Source: Escherichia phage HermannAdler_Bas98
Strand: one strand, 5' to 3'
Sequence record: PQ850608.1
Length of the DNA stretch: 64,000 nucleotides
Below, in pieces: positions 38,871-44,763 of this stretch. Each line of letters starts with the position of its first letter. The stretch's first letter is position 1. The notes below the pieces were generated by a model, which did not search any database, was not told the DNA's origin, and was given only the letters and a program-made list of their open reading frames with translations. A program made the translations under genes and the position numbers.

Positions 38871-39422
38871 TTATACAGTGTACGGAGTACCTTCTTGATT
38901 CAAGCGCACGATAAACTTCAAATCAACGCCGATGATTTCACGCGTATCAAAGATCACATAGTTGTAACGACGTTGGCCAGCGATGTTTGGGTTGGTGTGA
39001 GAATCAGTTACGACTTCCTGTGCAACCTGAATGCCTTCTTCGCTAAAGAACTTACGCCATTCAGCAAGTTCAGCAGCAGTCACGTGCATACCAAGGTGGC
39101 TGACCTGATTATCGTGCGCATCGAGCATGTCGATGTTTTCATTAATCCAGTTGCAACCTTTTGTGTAGTCAAGGATTTCAAGCTCAAGAGGCTTACCAGC
39201 GCCGCCATCAGTACCGTTGCCAGCCTGATAGTTGAAGCGCAAGTCAGCTTCATTGGTGCAATCGCCGCGCTGACCTTTAAAGTCATCAGCTTCAAATACG
39301 CGACCAGTAGCAACAACGTGATCATGGAACCACTCTGTCAGGCCGATTTTAGCCAGGAAGTCCTGAGCGCGTTGAGCATCTGGAATGGACAGGGCGATTT
39401 GTTCAATTTTAAAATGTGGCAT
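38871..39422 (-). CDS. Hypothetical protein, VOC/glyoxalase-like fold suspected
   Basis: 183 aa; N-terminal MPHFKIEQIALSIPD...FLAKIGL pattern reminiscent of VOC enzymes; weak. Confidence 0.4.
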   Translation of the reverse strand: MPHFKIEQIALSIPDAQRAQDFLAKIGLTEWFHDHVVATGRVFEADDFKGQRGDCTNEADLRFNYQAGNGTDGGAGKPLELEILDYTKGCNWINENIDMLDAHDNQVSHLGMHVTAAELAEWRKFFSEEGIQVAQEVVTDSHTNPNIAGQRRYNYVIFDTREIIGVDLKFIVRLNQEGTPYTV

Positions 39423-40580: not shown

Positions 40581-41456
40581 CTATTTATTGAAATTAATAT
40601 TATGGGTGTTAACAAGACGTTCACACATGGCGCTATAAACACCATCGTCGTGTATTGAGTCTTCGTGCTTCAGGCCGCTGATTGCGAAGCGTGTAAGCTT
40701 GACAATCTTAAGCTCGAACAGATGCCACATGTGGTAGTCTTCCGGTGTCTTCAAAGTTACGCCATTAGGGAACAACACCTGCATAACCTGACCTACCATC
40801 ACAGCGTTATCGCCATAAACGGCATTGCGCTCACGGAAGGTCGCGGCCATCGCATCAAGAATATCAGCAGCGGTTGCTGGGGCTTGTTGTTCAACTTCAA
40901 CAAGTTTAGTCTCTTCTTTCCCTGTTGCACTTGGATCAACTGCTAATTGTTGCACCACTTCACCTGCCTTGCAAAGATTAAATGTAAAGGCGATTTTATT
41001 TTGCGCCATGGAATTATAGTGCAAAGCTTCTTCTTGCATCCGCGCGAGTACGTCTTGTCGGTCGTCGAATACATTGATGATTCGATAATCGCCGTGCCGC
41101 AAAGCGTGCGATAGCCATGCAGATTTCATAATAGTTGATGGACGTTTGTCGCCATAGTCTCTCATCTTGATTGTAAATTCATCAAAAGGGAAAACATTGT
41201 CCAGACGTTCAAAAGTCACTTGTCTGTATTTTTCTGGCCTTGCAGTCCAATATTCAACCGCCTCACCGCGAAGAGATGCCGACTCTACTGCTGATGCAAT
41301 GTGAGGATAGAACTGATCATAACCAATACCGCTGTGATAGTCATCATAGTCTGACAACGGACCTGCCACCTTGATGCGGTCTAAGCGCCAACGGTCATCA
41401 AACAGCGTTCCGTCAAGGTCGAATACGTTTAAGATTTCGCTGTTTTTAATGCTCAT
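40581..41456 (-). CDS. HAD-superfamily phosphatase with C-terminal extension
   Basis: N-terminal motif I FDLDGTLFD (DxDGT); 291 aa, C-terminal half unassigned. Confidence 0.6.
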   Translation of the reverse strand: MSIKNSEILNVFDLDGTLFDDRWRLDRIKVAGPLSDYDDYHSGIGYDQFYPHIASAVESASLRGEAVEYWTARPEKYRQVTFERLDNVFPFDEFTIKMRDYGDKRPSTIMKSAWLSHALRHGDYRIINVFDDRQDVLARMQEEALHYNSMAQNKIAFTFNLCKAGEVVQQLAVDPSATGKEETKLVEVEQQAPATAADILDAMAATFRERNAVYGDNAVMVGQVMQVLFPNGVTLKTPEDYHMWHLFELKIVKLTRFAISGLKHEDSIHDDGVYSAMCERLVNTHNINFNK

Positions 41457-42262
41457 CCTTTTGATACTCCATCTTTAGCAACTGGATTGTTGGTGATTGG
41501 CATTGCACTCCAAAACTGGATGCGCAACTCTTCTTGCTGTGCCGTGGTATCCATCCAATCACGATACCAAGGGCAATGGGCTTTGCCATGACGAGGAAAC
41601 GCGCATTTACCCATACCGATGCATTGCGGCTGTAATAGTGGATTTGCCCACGGGTGCACCTTGAGGACTTCCGCAACCATTGCGCGGAATACTTCTTGAT
41701 ACTCGCCTTGGGTGCGCGTGCACAAGCGGTTTGACGCCATCTGCTGCAGCGTGCGCAAGTTGAACTTTGCCATGATATGCGTTTGCATATTAGAAGGCAA
41801 CACGGCACGTGCATCTTGAATCTCTGCGCCAGCCGCGCGAAGCTCTTGGTATAGAGCGTCAATCGTGGCCATCGCATCATCCCACTTCTCTGCCAATGAG
41901 TGATTTCTTATGTGCACATCATCAAATGCATTTTCATCATTGCAGTCAAAAGGGTGCTCGAATGCCTTCGGACGAATCGCATCAAATGCAGACGACTCCT
42001 GAGCGCGGCTGGTGCGTTCTTGATATGCGCCTGTGCGTGTGCGTACCATCTGATGGGTCATGTTCTTTGATACAGCTGTGATATCAAAGATATAGTCCAC
42101 AAAGTCAAAAGGAGACCTGATTGTATCAAGCATGTAGCGCCAGTGCTCTTGCTTCTCTGATTCTGTCATCTCAGAGACTGGCTTACCAGTCATGCGCGTG
42201 TTCTTTGTTTCCAGCAAAAGGTCAAGTGCATCTTGGGTGTATCGAATTAATTCAACTTTCAT
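41453..42262 (-). CDS. Divergent ThyX-like (flavin-dependent thymidylate synthase family) protein
   Basis: Aligns by eye to the ThyX core: QMVRTRTGAYQERTSR where ThyX has the RHR-x7-S motif, and RAVLPSNMQTH...R.L..M...R against the second ThyX block; Cys-rich C-terminal tail CIGMGKCAFPRHGKAHCPWY. Confidence 0.65.
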   Translation of the reverse strand: MKVELIRYTQDALDLLLETKNTRMTGKPVSEMTESEKQEHWRYMLDTIRSPFDFVDYIFDITAVSKNMTHQMVRTRTGAYQERTSRAQESSAFDAIRPKAFEHPFDCNDENAFDDVHIRNHSLAEKWDDAMATIDALYQELRAAGAEIQDARAVLPSNMQTHIMAKFNLRTLQQMASNRLCTRTQGEYQEVFRAMVAEVLKVHPWANPLLQPQCIGMGKCAFPRHGKAHCPWYRDWMDTTAQQEELRIQFWSAMPITNNPVAKDGVSKG

Positions 42263-42275
42263 TTTAATTATCCTA

Positions 42276-42722
42276 TTAACGGTAATTCACTAGTTGCTGA
42301 TCACCAGAGAAGGTGCAATGATAAACGAATTGTGCGTTATAAAGCAACTGAAAACTTTTCTTTGGTTCATTATTAGAACTCATTGATGTAAAGATTTCTG
42401 CACCAGAACGGTTTTCACCAATCAGGTTAATAAAGTCGCCAGTTGAACGAGGCTGAACGAAAGTGAAACGCTGCATCCACGGAGTCCGGTTGGCACCTTT
42501 TCCGGTGAATCCCTGAATCTGAATATTCAGACCTTCTTGCTCGTTCACACCGATGTAAGTGGTAATTGTTGCGCCAGTCGTCGCTGCAGTCTTGCCGTCC
42601 ATCGCTTCGCAATCGTAAACAGCGATTGAATCGGAAGTACGGACAGCGGCTTCAGTCGCTTCCATATACATGGTTCCGAGAATAGCAGTTGCGGCAAGCG
42701 CGATTCCAGTGATGCGTTTCAT
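42276..42722 (-). CDS. Secreted protein with signal peptide
   Basis: N-terminus MKRITGIALAATAILGTMYMEA; 148 aa. Confidence 0.5.
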   Translation of the reverse strand: MKRITGIALAATAILGTMYMEATEAAVRTSDSIAVYDCEAMDGKTAATTGATITTYIGVNEQEGLNIQIQGFTGKGANRTPWMQRFTFVQPRSTGDFINLIGENRSGAEIFTSMSSNNEPKKSFQLLYNAQFVYHCTFSGDQQLVNYR

Positions 42723-42787: not shown

Positions 42788-43783
42788 TTATTTATTAGCA
42801 ATATAAGCAAATTTTTGATAGTTATTTGCTTTGATGAGTTTTTCAACTTCAGCAAGGTCATGAGCGACGTCATCAAGCAAAATGTTTCGCCAAGTAGCGA
42901 ATCGACCGACACTAAATACGTTCAAATCCATGGTCAGTTGCAGGAGTAGAGCGTGTCGCAAGTCTTTCGGAATGTCGACAATCTTGCCATACTTCTGGTC
43001 GACCTTTTCAACTTCTTCGAGAGCGATGTCACTCCATGATAGGCCAAAGGCTGTCAATACTTCGTCAACTTCTGCACGCAACTTAATGTCACGGTAACGA
43101 GTAATGCCGCCAGCGGCTTCAACTGCGGCTTCACTTACGCTAACCAAAGGAATTGTTTCGATGATCAGCGTGTCACCAGTGATTGATGCGCGGTAAGTTC
43201 TGACGGAGTAGTCAGGGAAGTAAATTGTCTGATACAACTCACACTTACGTTTAATCTTAAAGCGGTAAACACGAATGTTTGCTTTATCAAATGAAAAATC
43301 AAGCTTTTGATCAATCCCAGCCAGCTTCATCATAACTGGCAGCGGCGACGTGTTGATGATTGGCGTCTCGCTATAGCCGCAAAGAGTATCAACAGGAGTA
43401 TTAAAGAATATGCGGTCGCCCAGTTTGTCGACAAGCTGATCATAAAAGTCATCAGGCGCAATATAACGCGTTGCAGTTTTAAGCTTCATGATTGAACGGC
43501 TGCCAAACTGATTGGTGACCTTCATGGAATACATATTGGCAAGGTTGATTGGACAATGGTCGTGGTAGTAGTTGCCGCGAAAATACACAGCCTTGTCAAC
43601 TGTCACGGCCTTAAAAGGGATTCCGGTAATACGGCTTACTTCTTCGCCGCGAAAGCGTAGCAGTGCCTTGTGCTGTGGCGCTCGCTCCCCTGCTTCGTAC
43701 ACAATAGAGTTCGGGAAGTGACACGCGGTGATAAGTCCTGCCAAACCGCCGCCGATAATCATTACAGGTTGTTTCATGTTCAT
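42788..43783 (-). CDS. FAD/NAD(P)-binding oxidoreductase
   Basis: Dinucleotide-binding GxGxxG at N-terminus (MIIGGGLAGL) followed by acidic residue pattern; 331 aa. Confidence 0.6.
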   Translation of the reverse strand: MNMKQPVMIIGGGLAGLITACHFPNSIVYEAGERAPQHKALLRFRGEEVSRITGIPFKAVTVDKAVYFRGNYYHDHCPINLANMYSMKVTNQFGSRSIMKLKTATRYIAPDDFYDQLVDKLGDRIFFNTPVDTLCGYSETPIINTSPLPVMMKLAGIDQKLDFSFDKANIRVYRFKIKRKCELYQTIYFPDYSVRTYRASITGDTLIIETIPLVSVSEAAVEAAGGITRYRDIKLRAEVDEVLTAFGLSWSDIALEEVEKVDQKYGKIVDIPKDLRHALLLQLTMDLNVFSVGRFATWRNILLDDVAHDLAEVEKLIKANNYQKFAYIANK

Positions 43784-43917: not shown

Positions 43918-44763
43918 TTATTCCGCTTGATCACCGTCTTCGGCATCGTCGTTGGATTCAACATCGACAAACTCGATGTGGCCCATCTCTTCCAGCTTGC
44001 TCAGGTAGGAGCGAACGGAAGCGCCAAACAGCTGATCTTTAACTTTCTCGCCCAGCTCATCGATAGACTGCGCCACGCCAACTTCGCCTTCTTTGATCGC
44101 CGCCAGAACGCGCCCACGGGTGGAGTGCTCCTGCGGCTGGCTCAGGCCGTTGCCAGTGTAGATGAAGTGAGTAGCTTTTGCACGGCGCTGACCGTTTGCC
44201 TTTTTGGCAGCCTTGCGCTCTGCGATGGCTTTGCGACGTTCTTCAGCTTCTTTCTTACGCTGTTCTTTTTGCTGTTCTGCAGCTTCTTTCGCCGCGATCT
44301 TAGCAGCTTCACGCTCTGCCTTGCGTTTCGCTTTCGCTTCTTCTTTAGCCTTCTCTTTTTCGGCCTTTGCTGCAGCACGGGCTTGATCACGCTCTGCTTT
44401 CTTAGCAGCAGCTTGTTCAGCTTTCAGGCGCTTGGCTTCTTCTTTGGCCTTTGCCTTTTCGATTTCTTTTGCTGCTTTAGCGGCTTCACGCTCTGCTTTC
44501 TTAGCAGCAGCCTTTTCTGCACGCTCTTTAGCTTTCTTAGCTGCTTCTTCAGCACGCTTCTGAGCCTTCTCATCAGCAGCCTGTTTGCGCTTCAGCGCGG
44601 CTTCTTCACGCTTGGCTTGTTTTTCCTGCTCACGCTTCTGGCGTTTTTCTTCGGCTTCTTTCTTTTTAGCCAGGCGTTTTTCTTCAGCCACGCGACGACG
44701 TTCTGCTGCGGCTGCTTGTTTTTCTTCTTTAGATAATACTTTGATTGCTTCGGCCATATTCAC
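43918..44763 (-). CDS. Lys/Glu/Ala-rich repeat protein with globular C-terminal domain
   Basis: About 200 aa of KEA-rich low-complexity helix-like repeats (AEEKRLAKKKEAEEKRQK...), then an ordered domain with acidic tail; underlying DNA has tandem repeats. Confidence 0.55.
   Translation of the reverse strand: MNMAEAIKVLSKEEKQAAAAERRRVAEEKRLAKKKEAEEKRQKREQEKQAKREEAALKRKQAADEKAQKRAEEAAKKAKERAEKAAAKKAEREAAKAAKEIEKAKAKEEAKRLKAEQAAAKKAERDQARAAAKAEKEKAKEEAKAKRKAEREAAKIAAKEAAEQQKEQRKKEAEERRKAIAERKAAKKANGQRRAKATHFIYTGNGLSQPQEHSTRGRVLAAIKEGEVGVAQSIDELGEKVKDQLFGASVRSYLSKLEEMGHIEFVDVESNDDAEDGDQAE

Follow-up and report, generated by a model that had tools for sequence, protein, structure and literature searches.

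A divergent viral ThyX-fold protein with an RTR motif and a four-cysteine module encoded in the replication operon of Escherichia phage HermannAdler_Bas98

Does a phage ThyX homologue that has lost canonical active-site residues still synthesize deoxythymidine monophosphate (dTMP), or does it carry out another chemistry at the C5 position of pyrimidines? The question is raised by a gene of Escherichia phage HermannAdler_Bas98 (Bas98, sequence record PQ850608.1), of which we analysed a stretch of 64,000 nucleotides (the window), comprising most of a Wifcevirus genome (E. coli/Shigella myovirus, ~68 kb) with a G+C content of 46%. A first-pass annotation had recognised a ThyX-fold protein there, giving no strand, and had reasoned from an altered RHR-x7-S signature and a cysteine-rich C-terminal tail that it may not be an ordinary thymidylate synthase. 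Our analysis places the gene on the minus strand and establishes that it encodes a divergent ThyX-fold protein, so that the ThyX assignment is correct. With moderate confidence, we interpret the product as a dTMP synthase specific to its lineage, in which four cysteines form a structural metal site.

The open reading frame (ORF) extends from ATG to TGA, with AGGA located 9-12 nt 5' of the start codon, and its stop shares ATGA with the start of the following gene, encoding a HAD protein, which suggests translational coupling. The surrounding 5-kb stretch matches 28 phage records at 93-96% identity, ManiWeber_Bas99 (Bas99) being the closest. Between Bas98 and Bas99 the ORF shows 37 synonymous and 5 non-synonymous codon differences, and orthologues were found in 28/28 of the matching Wifcevirus-type records; hence the ORF is under purifying selection and is not a chance reading frame. 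The gene sits in a minus-strand replication operon which encodes, in the direction of transcription, a Dda-like helicase, a Lys/Ala/Glu-rich protein, a 331-residue protein, a 148-residue protein, the ThyX-like protein, a HAD phosphatase, a short-chain dehydrogenase (SDR), two small ORFs, a 3'-5' exonuclease, DNA polymerase, helicases, a MazG-like protein and a ligase. In the 43 kb examined of phage Bas99, which is nearly identical, the annotation lists no second thymidylate synthase.

The family assignment is borne out by sequence and by structure prediction. The protein matches Pfam Thy1 (PF02511) over residues 5-205 with E=1.7e-29 and 103.4 bits (cut-off 24.8) and PHROG 85 'thymidylate synthase' with 1.5e-37, while a phmmer search of the PDB gave significant matches to ThyX chains only (best 3n0b, 4e-4). 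The check by structure prediction proposed in the first-pass annotation gave the same answer: the AlphaFold2 monomer model, built with 43 homologues (predicted local distance difference test, pLDDT, 86.8; predicted template-modelling score, pTM, 0.80), has the ThyX fold. All 50 matches listed by Foldseek against the PDB were ThyX (E ~4e-10), with a template-modelling (TM) score of 0.72-0.76 on the target for Thermotoga maritima ThyX.

The altered signature was confirmed as well. The protein reads R74-T75-R76-TGAYQER-T84-S85, i.e. RTR-x7-TS instead of the canonical RHR-x7-S; QMVRTRTGAYQERTSRA of the phage protein stands opposite QWFRHRIASYNELSGRY of T. maritima ThyX, where the aligned counterpart is R78-H79-R80 ... 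S88-G89. In comparison with the T. maritima enzyme, H79 is replaced by T75, S88 by T84, G89 by S85, Y91 by A87 and H53 by I48, and Q71, R74, R76, E82, R86, R152, N168-x-R170 and R179 are kept. Q71, R74, R86, R152 and R179, the equivalents of the residues that bind and activate deoxyuridine monophosphate (dUMP) in T. maritima (Q75, R78, R90, R147 and R174; roles in part from PMC6514825), are invariant in 121 close relatives. RTR, A87, I48 and the cysteines C181, C214, C220 and C230 are equally invariant in these sequences, down to ~52% identity, and the Pbunavirus orthologue, gp59 of phage phiKTN6, keeps RTR, TS-R-A and the four cysteines despite a 35-residue insert before the last cysteine. 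On the alignment, the loss of the His53/Tyr91 pair is a greater departure from canonical ThyX than the change from RHR to RTR. His70, at the position of T. maritima R74, was dropped from the list of deviations, as histidine is usual there, for example in Mycobacterium tuberculosis ThyX and in the P0260 group described below.

To what extent are such motifs unusual? A profile search of 1.84 billion representatives returned 4,946 ThyX relatives at E <= 0.001, and residues were counted in 130 of the top 150, namely those spanning both motif regions. The middle residue of R-x-R was T in 68 of these 130 representatives, followed by H (27), Q (16), S (9) and N (6), and the notion of RTR as a rare variant was rejected, since threonine is the majority state of the branch. 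The position of T. maritima H53 is occupied by I, L or V in 114 representatives and by His in 1, and that of Y91 by V, A, F, T or I in 112 and by Tyr in 5. The cysteine set (181, 214, 220) accompanies a middle T (20), H (24), S, Q and others, and 47 Thr-type proteins possess neither the set nor the tail, so RTR and the cysteines vary independently. The ThyX branch with the Thr-type motif is large and apparently mostly viral. The close family combining RTR with four cysteines looks phage-only; a scan of GTDB genomes with strict patterns, which is silent on distant relatives, detected it on one 595-bp contig. One metagenomic member of the branch (P0163, 632 residues) has at its N-terminus a domain of group I intron endonucleases (TIGR01453, E=5e-12), which points to a fusion with a homing endonuclease or to an intron mis-called inside a viral thyX.

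The C-terminal extension comprises ~60 residues beyond the ThyX domain. It had been described as a C-x4-C...H...C cluster; the cysteine cluster is real, but the spacing is C-x5-C (CIGMGKC), the full arrangement being C214-IGMGK-C220-AFPRHGKAH-C230 with x4-H225-x3-H229-C230, and the histidines are not conserved among the 121 sequences (position 225: H78/W33/Y8; position 229: H74/Q28/N6). Furthermore, a fourth cysteine, C181, lies within the ThyX domain two residues past R179, the catalytic-Arg equivalent, and C181, C214, C220 and C230 are each present in 121/121 relatives. The C181 position is D or S in the T. maritima and M. tuberculosis enzymes, and in the PDB copy searched the module is absent from ThyX, all alignments stopping before the tail. 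An archaeal ThyX from a metagenome-assembled genome (MAG), P0260, combines the cysteine set with canonical residues and scores 158.3 bits with TIGR02170, the NCBIfam thyX equivalog. A search seeded with P0260 returned 6,403 relatives, of which the best 120 were scored: RHR-x7-S-x-RY was found in 100/120 and R-[LMIV]-C-x(20-45)-C-x5-C with a fourth cysteine within 3-12 residues in 111/120. Their dominant spacing is C-x32-C-x5-C-x5-C, to which the phage protein is identical over C-x32-C-x5-C. These relatives come from Chloroflexota, Dehalococcoidia, Micrarchaeia, Rokuibacteriota, KSB1 and other MAGs (e.g. RLG72574.1), on contigs of up to 1.4 Mb. As the module joins RHR, RTR, RSR, RQR and fully canonical motifs alike, a cysteine tail specific to the altered active site was rejected. 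Because the same spacing occurs in canonical RHR/S/RY relatives, the tail is, to judge from these sequences, an old and optional ThyX module and not a mark of new chemistry. Four-cysteine ThyX proteins may constitute an unrecognised metal-binding subclass; our literature search found no paper tying ThyX to an iron-sulphur (Fe-S) or other metal cluster.

Both arguments of the first-pass annotation for a non-standard chemistry, the RTR motif and the cysteine tail, therefore fail. It had named a wide occurrence of the substitutions among true ThyX enzymes as evidence against its suspicion; they are indeed common in the family, within a Thr-type branch for which no assayed member was found in the literature. 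The suspicion that the protein may not be an ordinary synthase survives on other grounds: the loss of the His53/Tyr91 pair, the TIGR02170 score, the company of the gene and a link to thymine hypermodification in Pbunavirus, which are considered below. The coordinates of the features are collected in the table.

Table. Features of the ThyX-like gene of phage Bas98 and of its neighbourhood, in positions of the window.
Feature	Position	Strand	Basis or remark
ThyX-like ORF, 269 residues	41453..42262	minus	TGA stop at 41453-41455 counted in
Variant motif R74-T75-R76-x7-T84-S85, then R86-A87 (T. maritima R90-Y91)	42008..42043	minus	RTR invariant in 121/121 close relatives
I48, position of T. maritima His53 (folate/flavin-stacking His)	42119..42121	minus	alignment; I/L/V in 114/130 branch representatives
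A87, position of T. maritima Tyr91 (active-site-loop lid, proposed general acid)	42002..42004	minus	alignment; role from PMC11940539
R152, T. maritima R147 equivalent (dUMP binding), kept	41807..41809	minus	alignment
R179-L180-C181, kept catalytic-Arg equivalent (T. maritima R174) and first invariant Cys	41720..41728	minus	alignment
C-terminal cysteine knuckle C214-x5-C220-x9-C230 (CIGMGKCAFPRHGKAHC)	41573..41623	minus	conservation; pLDDT 93-95 over residues 201-250
HAD (PNKP-type phosphatase) protein with C-terminal part, 291 residues, downstream	40581..41456	minus	profile matches; ATG overlaps ThyX stop
Orphan GxGxxG protein, 331 residues, phrog_4828, FAD-oxidoreductase fold	42788..43783	minus	no Pfam family; upstream conserved partner
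FabG-like SDR, 227 residues	39832..40515	minus	profile matches; lineage-variable accessory
148-residue ORF with hydrophobic N-terminus, between the 331-residue and ThyX-like genes	42276..42722	minus	no family match
281-residue protein with long Lys/Ala/Glu-rich low-complexity stretch, phrog_4765	43918-44763	minus	'TolA' in some records
183-residue ORF between exonuclease and SDR	38871-39422	minus	weak sub-threshold glyoxalase/dioxygenase (VOC) match, E=0.0066, 17 bits vs cut-off 27

In the reading that we favour, the protein would be a flavin-dependent thymidylate synthase of a divergent, apparently mostly viral ThyX lineage. Since the Arg and Gln residues holding and activating dUMP are kept together with the N-x-R flavin contacts, flavin adenine dinucleotide (FAD) and dUMP are probably bound as in canonical ThyX, and the enzyme would serve, from its place within the replication operon, as the source of dTMP for copying the phage genome; the exonuclease, DNA polymerase, helicases and ligase encoded around it were counted in favour of this role. 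Thr75 stands in for the histidine of RHR, and its hydroxyl could take over a phosphate contact. C181, near Arg179, together with C214, C220 and C230 would most likely hold a metal in a structural role, as Zn or perhaps as an Fe-S cluster, which would staple the C-terminal extension onto the helix bearing Arg179, the module being inherited from the widespread four-cysteine ThyX subclass. The fold, the conserved residues, the spread of the motifs and the genes alongside are shown directly; catalysis, like the metal, is what we infer here, and with it a compensation for the absent His53/Tyr91 pair.

Several observations weigh against a dTMP synthase. The TIGR02170 score of 78.1 bits lies below the curated cut-off of 87.9, no assayed relative with the Thr-type motif came to light, and the His53/Tyr91 pair is replaced by I48 and A87. 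Tyr91 and Ser88 of T. maritima, here A87 and T84, have been called 'strictly conserved' and critical, and mutation of Tyr91 made flavin oxidation 1000-fold slower (PMC11940539, 2025). In the same enzyme His53, here I48, stacks on folate or reduced flavin, hydrogen-bonds Tyr91 and gates the active site (PMC11940539), and the tyrosine has been described as a lid keeping uracil C5 and flavin N5 from solvent (review PMC6514825). Finally, dTMP synthesis leaves unaccounted for the company that the gene keeps, an orphan flavoprotein, a HAD phosphatase and a lineage-variable SDR or methyltransferase.

This company recurs. The genes for the 331-residue family, the ThyX-like protein and the HAD_PNKP phosphatase form a trio that corresponds to gp65, gp59 and gp57 of Pbunavirus phiKTN6, occupies the same positions in the Pbunaviruses F8 and 14-1, and is found in the 207-kb Rhizobium jumbo phage RHph_Y65, where the ThyX-like orthologue lies 3 kb from a dUTPase and a ribonucleotide reductase. 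At 32-39% identity, the flavoprotein-family gene keeps close to the ThyX-like gene in all these lineages, being one to a few genes away in Wifcevirus, Pbunavirus and the Rhizobium phage and adjoining or overlapping it in two metagenomic phages; in one metagenomic phage with the trio a 321-residue homologue (38% identity) abuts the ThyX-like gene, and in a gut phage with the trio the ThyX-like protein (P0144) is without any cysteine. In the phage database, the flavoprotein and the closer ThyX-like matches have the same genus counts, with 292 Pseudomonas, 26 Escherichia, 9 Serratia and 6 Xanthomonas phages. The 331-residue protein has 1,911 relatives, and none of the 120 listed carries a Pfam domain. 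Its model (pLDDT 86) resembles two-domain FAD enzymes with TM scores on the query of 0.5-0.62, among them UDP-galactopyranose mutase, monoamine oxidase and renalase, which the fold search could not separate; searching the PDB with the sequences of the 331- and 291-residue neighbours gave nothing useful. The C-terminal half of the 291-residue protein probably corresponds to DUF6378, because the metagenomic phage with the 321-residue homologue encodes its HAD domain and a DUF6378 protein separately. Its annotation as 'polynucleotide kinase/phosphorylase' is doubtful, as we detected a HAD domain and no kinase domain.

The SDR family is more variable. It was seen in Wifcevirus, Myosmarvirus, Pantoea, Xylella and Xanthomonas phages and in those of Gordonia (35) and Mycobacterium (28), two groups in which ThyX-like genes of the branch are found as well; the Pbunavirus entries of the phage database lack it. 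The match lists for the SDR and for ThyX-like proteins share Gordonia phage Yikes and Mycobacterium phage Butterscotch, and in Yikes the SDR gene has genes for a methyltransferase, a DnaE-type polymerase and a MazG-like protein in its vicinity; the Gordonia and Mycobacterium phages are siphoviruses, as against the myoviruses of Gram-negative hosts. Further upstream, the Lys/Ala/Glu-rich protein of 281 residues is conserved, and the Pbunavirus gene at that position is annotated 'structural protein'. Other members of the ThyX-like branch with I or L at position 48 and no Tyr adjoin a faint dUTPase-like match and a nucleoside deoxyribosyltransferase, or a dCMP deaminase, all of which are ordinary dTMP-pathway contexts.

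Among the alternatives, the one that survives best, although we regard it as unlikely, is a neofunctionalised ThyX that activates dUMP on reduced flavin and releases a product other than dTMP, feeding thymine hypermodification. Two routes are conceivable. In the absence of His53 and of the lid formed by Tyr91, water could intercept the 5-methylene intermediate, yielding 5-hydroxymethyl-dUMP, or the hydroxyl of a polyol or sugar could do so; alternatively, flavin N5 could be loaded with some aldehyde in place of the methylene that folate provides. The chemistry has precedents: the ThyX reaction runs via an exocyclic methylene intermediate, attack of glycine on the analogous methylene was inferred by the authors for a ThyA-based hypermodification pathway (PMC8989533), and ThyX can reportedly use formaldehyde directly (PMC8316439). 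Apart from the lost lid and gate residues, this alternative is favoured by the recurrence of the gene with an SDR, a HAD phosphatase, the FAD-fold orphan and an S-adenosylmethionine (SAM) methyltransferase across unrelated phage lineages, and by findings on Pbunavirus.

The DNA of Pbunaviruses F8 and 14-1 resists enzymes with TG in their site, and roughly one T in four is exchanged for modified nucleosides with masses of 362 and 390 Da, which were described as derivatives of a sugar alcohol and of a pentose and for which no biosynthetic genes were proposed (10.1101/2025.03.31.646159). These masses agree with 5-hydroxymethyl-deoxyuridine (5-hmdU, 258) plus erythritol (122) minus 18, giving 362, and with 258 plus pentose (150) minus 18, giving 390; C-linked isomers fit as well. 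A ThyX-like orthologue is annotated in F8 and 14-1, its RTR and four cysteines having been verified in phiKTN6. No other pyrimidine-C5 enzyme is annotated in the genome parts examined, which makes it a natural candidate for the modification. No ThyA-type dUMP hydroxymethylase, 5-hmdU kinase (5-HMUDK) or other partner of the ThyA-type pathway is annotated in the portions of Bas99, F8 and 14-1 examined, the Pfam scans of the neighbouring ORFs detected neither enzyme, and a search of the literature brought up no report that connects ThyX with phage hypermodification.

Other observations argue against a modified product. The TG specificity of the Pbunavirus modification implies a step at the DNA level and argues for a writer acting there, whereas the protein keeps the arginines that bind the phosphate of a mononucleotide. 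In addition, three quarters of T are ordinary, so dTMP must still be made. All genes of the set lie in replication modules and may have been inherited as a block, which offers an alternative to a shared pathway, and sister sub-branches (I/L48, non-Tyr) have ordinary dUTPase or dCMP-deaminase neighbours. With regard to the TG rule, the restriction data for Wifcevirus are mixed. The window contains 17 EcoRI, 3 EcoRV and 78 EcoP1 sites; the EcoP1 site (AGACC/GGTCT) is without TG, which fits the observed sensitivity, yet the EcoRI and EcoRV sites are without TG too and those systems were resisted. Compared with the expectation from composition, the window has 0 XbaI sites (about 18 expected), 3 EcoRV (18), 103 GATC (247) and 57 HindIII (18), and the EcoRI sites are at expectation (17), though the genus is reported to be EcoRI-resistant.

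A more specific version seems to us less likely still, namely that the ThyX-like enzyme installs the C5 carbon in a new, ThyA-independent thymine-hypermodification pathway of Pbunavirus, Wifcevirus and allied phages. The ThyX-like protein, the flavoprotein, the HAD (DUF6378-like) protein and a variable SDR or SAM methyltransferase would together produce a 5-(polyol/sugar-substituted methyl)-deoxyuridine nucleotide, and the variable accessory genes would account for the adducts, 362 Da in F8 as against 390 Da in 14-1 with its extra methyltransferase. The SDR was rejected as the cause of the difference between F8 (sugar alcohol) and 14-1 (pentose), since no Pbunavirus has it; when the two phages are compared, a methyltransferase is present in 14-1 only. 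This gene, ORF12.1 (L016:6710-7207 (-)), encodes a small SAM methyltransferase with 40% identity to one from a metagenomic phage (L005:8750-9292 (+)), whose gene is flanked there by the ThyX-like and HAD genes. In the phage database its family is confined to phages of Pseudomonas (58), Gordonia (45), Mycobacterium (26), Burkholderia (1) and Salmonella (1), and the ThyX-like branch is likewise present in all of these groups except that of Salmonella. Between 14-1 and F8 the modified nucleosides are 28 Da apart, equal to two methyl groups, a comparison of two phages that may be coincidence.

It is improbable, in our judgement, that the protein is a true dTMP synthase in which the four cysteines hold a redox-active Fe-S cluster and the 331-residue FAD-fold protein acts as a reductase feeding the ThyX flavin, thereby replacing direct oxidation of reduced nicotinamide cofactor, NAD(P)H. 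Such an arrangement would be consistent with the proximity of the FAD-fold gene to the ThyX-like gene in Wifcevirus, Pbunavirus, the Rhizobium jumbo phage and two metagenomic phages, with the matching genus counts, with the likeness of the model to NAD(P)H-binding flavoenzymes (UDP-galactopyranose mutase, renalase) and with the location of C181 two residues from the catalytic Arg. However, the partner also accompanies cysteine-free ThyX-like proteins such as P0144, and we know of no classical Fe-S motif that matches the C-x32-C-x5-C-x5/9-C spacing. A catalytically impaired ThyX fold with a non-enzymatic role, in nucleotide or flavin binding or in regulation within the replisome, would agree with the loss of residues critical in T. 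maritima and with the score under the equivalog cut-off, but is highly improbable, because the substrate-binding and activating arginines and the flavin contacts are invariant down to ~52% identity and across the 50%-clustered branch, the pattern that selection on catalysis produces.

If the protein is an ordinary synthase, a large, apparently mostly viral branch does without the 'strictly conserved' His53 and Tyr91 and often without the RHR histidine, and a widespread, probably metal-binding four-cysteine module exists that is not covered by any solved structure in the PDB copy searched. Each of these findings would revise the textbook picture of ThyX, with consequences for its mechanism and for the design of inhibitors. 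Otherwise, this gene and those beside it become the first concrete candidates behind thymine hypermodification in Pbunavirus, whose members are mainstays of Pseudomonas phage therapy, and also for restriction resistance in Wifcevirus.

In comparison with known systems, the phage protein shares with canonical ThyX, also termed FDTS (T. maritima TM0449, M. tuberculosis ThyX; PF02511, TIGR02170), the fold, the equivalents of T. maritima Q75, R78, R80, E86, R90, R147 and R174, the N-x-R flavin contacts and a genomic setting beside replication and nucleotide-metabolism genes. The canonical enzyme is a homotetramer with active sites where its subunits meet and uses FAD and CH2-THF to convert dUMP to dTMP. 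The phage protein differs in RTR, in Thr-Ser for Ser88-Gly89, in Ala for Tyr91 and Ile for His53, in the 60-residue C-terminal extension with its four-cysteine site and in the sub-cut-off TIGR02170 score. The four-cysteine canonical subclass, the relatives of P0260, has the same R-L-C-x32-C-x5-C-x5/9-C module; in contrast to the phage protein, its members have RHR-x7-S-x-RY, and His53 is retained as well in the proteins closest to P0260. PolB-type ThyX homologues, which act in nucleoside-antibiotic pathways as C5-methylases of uridine monophosphate, provide a precedent for a remodelled ThyX acting on a different pyrimidine nucleotide. PolB itself is bacterial and still methylates. The ThyA-family dUMP hydroxymethylases of the thymidine-hypermodifying phages SP10, phiW-14, ViI and M6 (PMC8989533) perform an equivalent step, the addition of a C5 carbon onto dUMP before replication, but do so with another fold and mechanism, that of folate-only ThyA with a Cys nucleophile.

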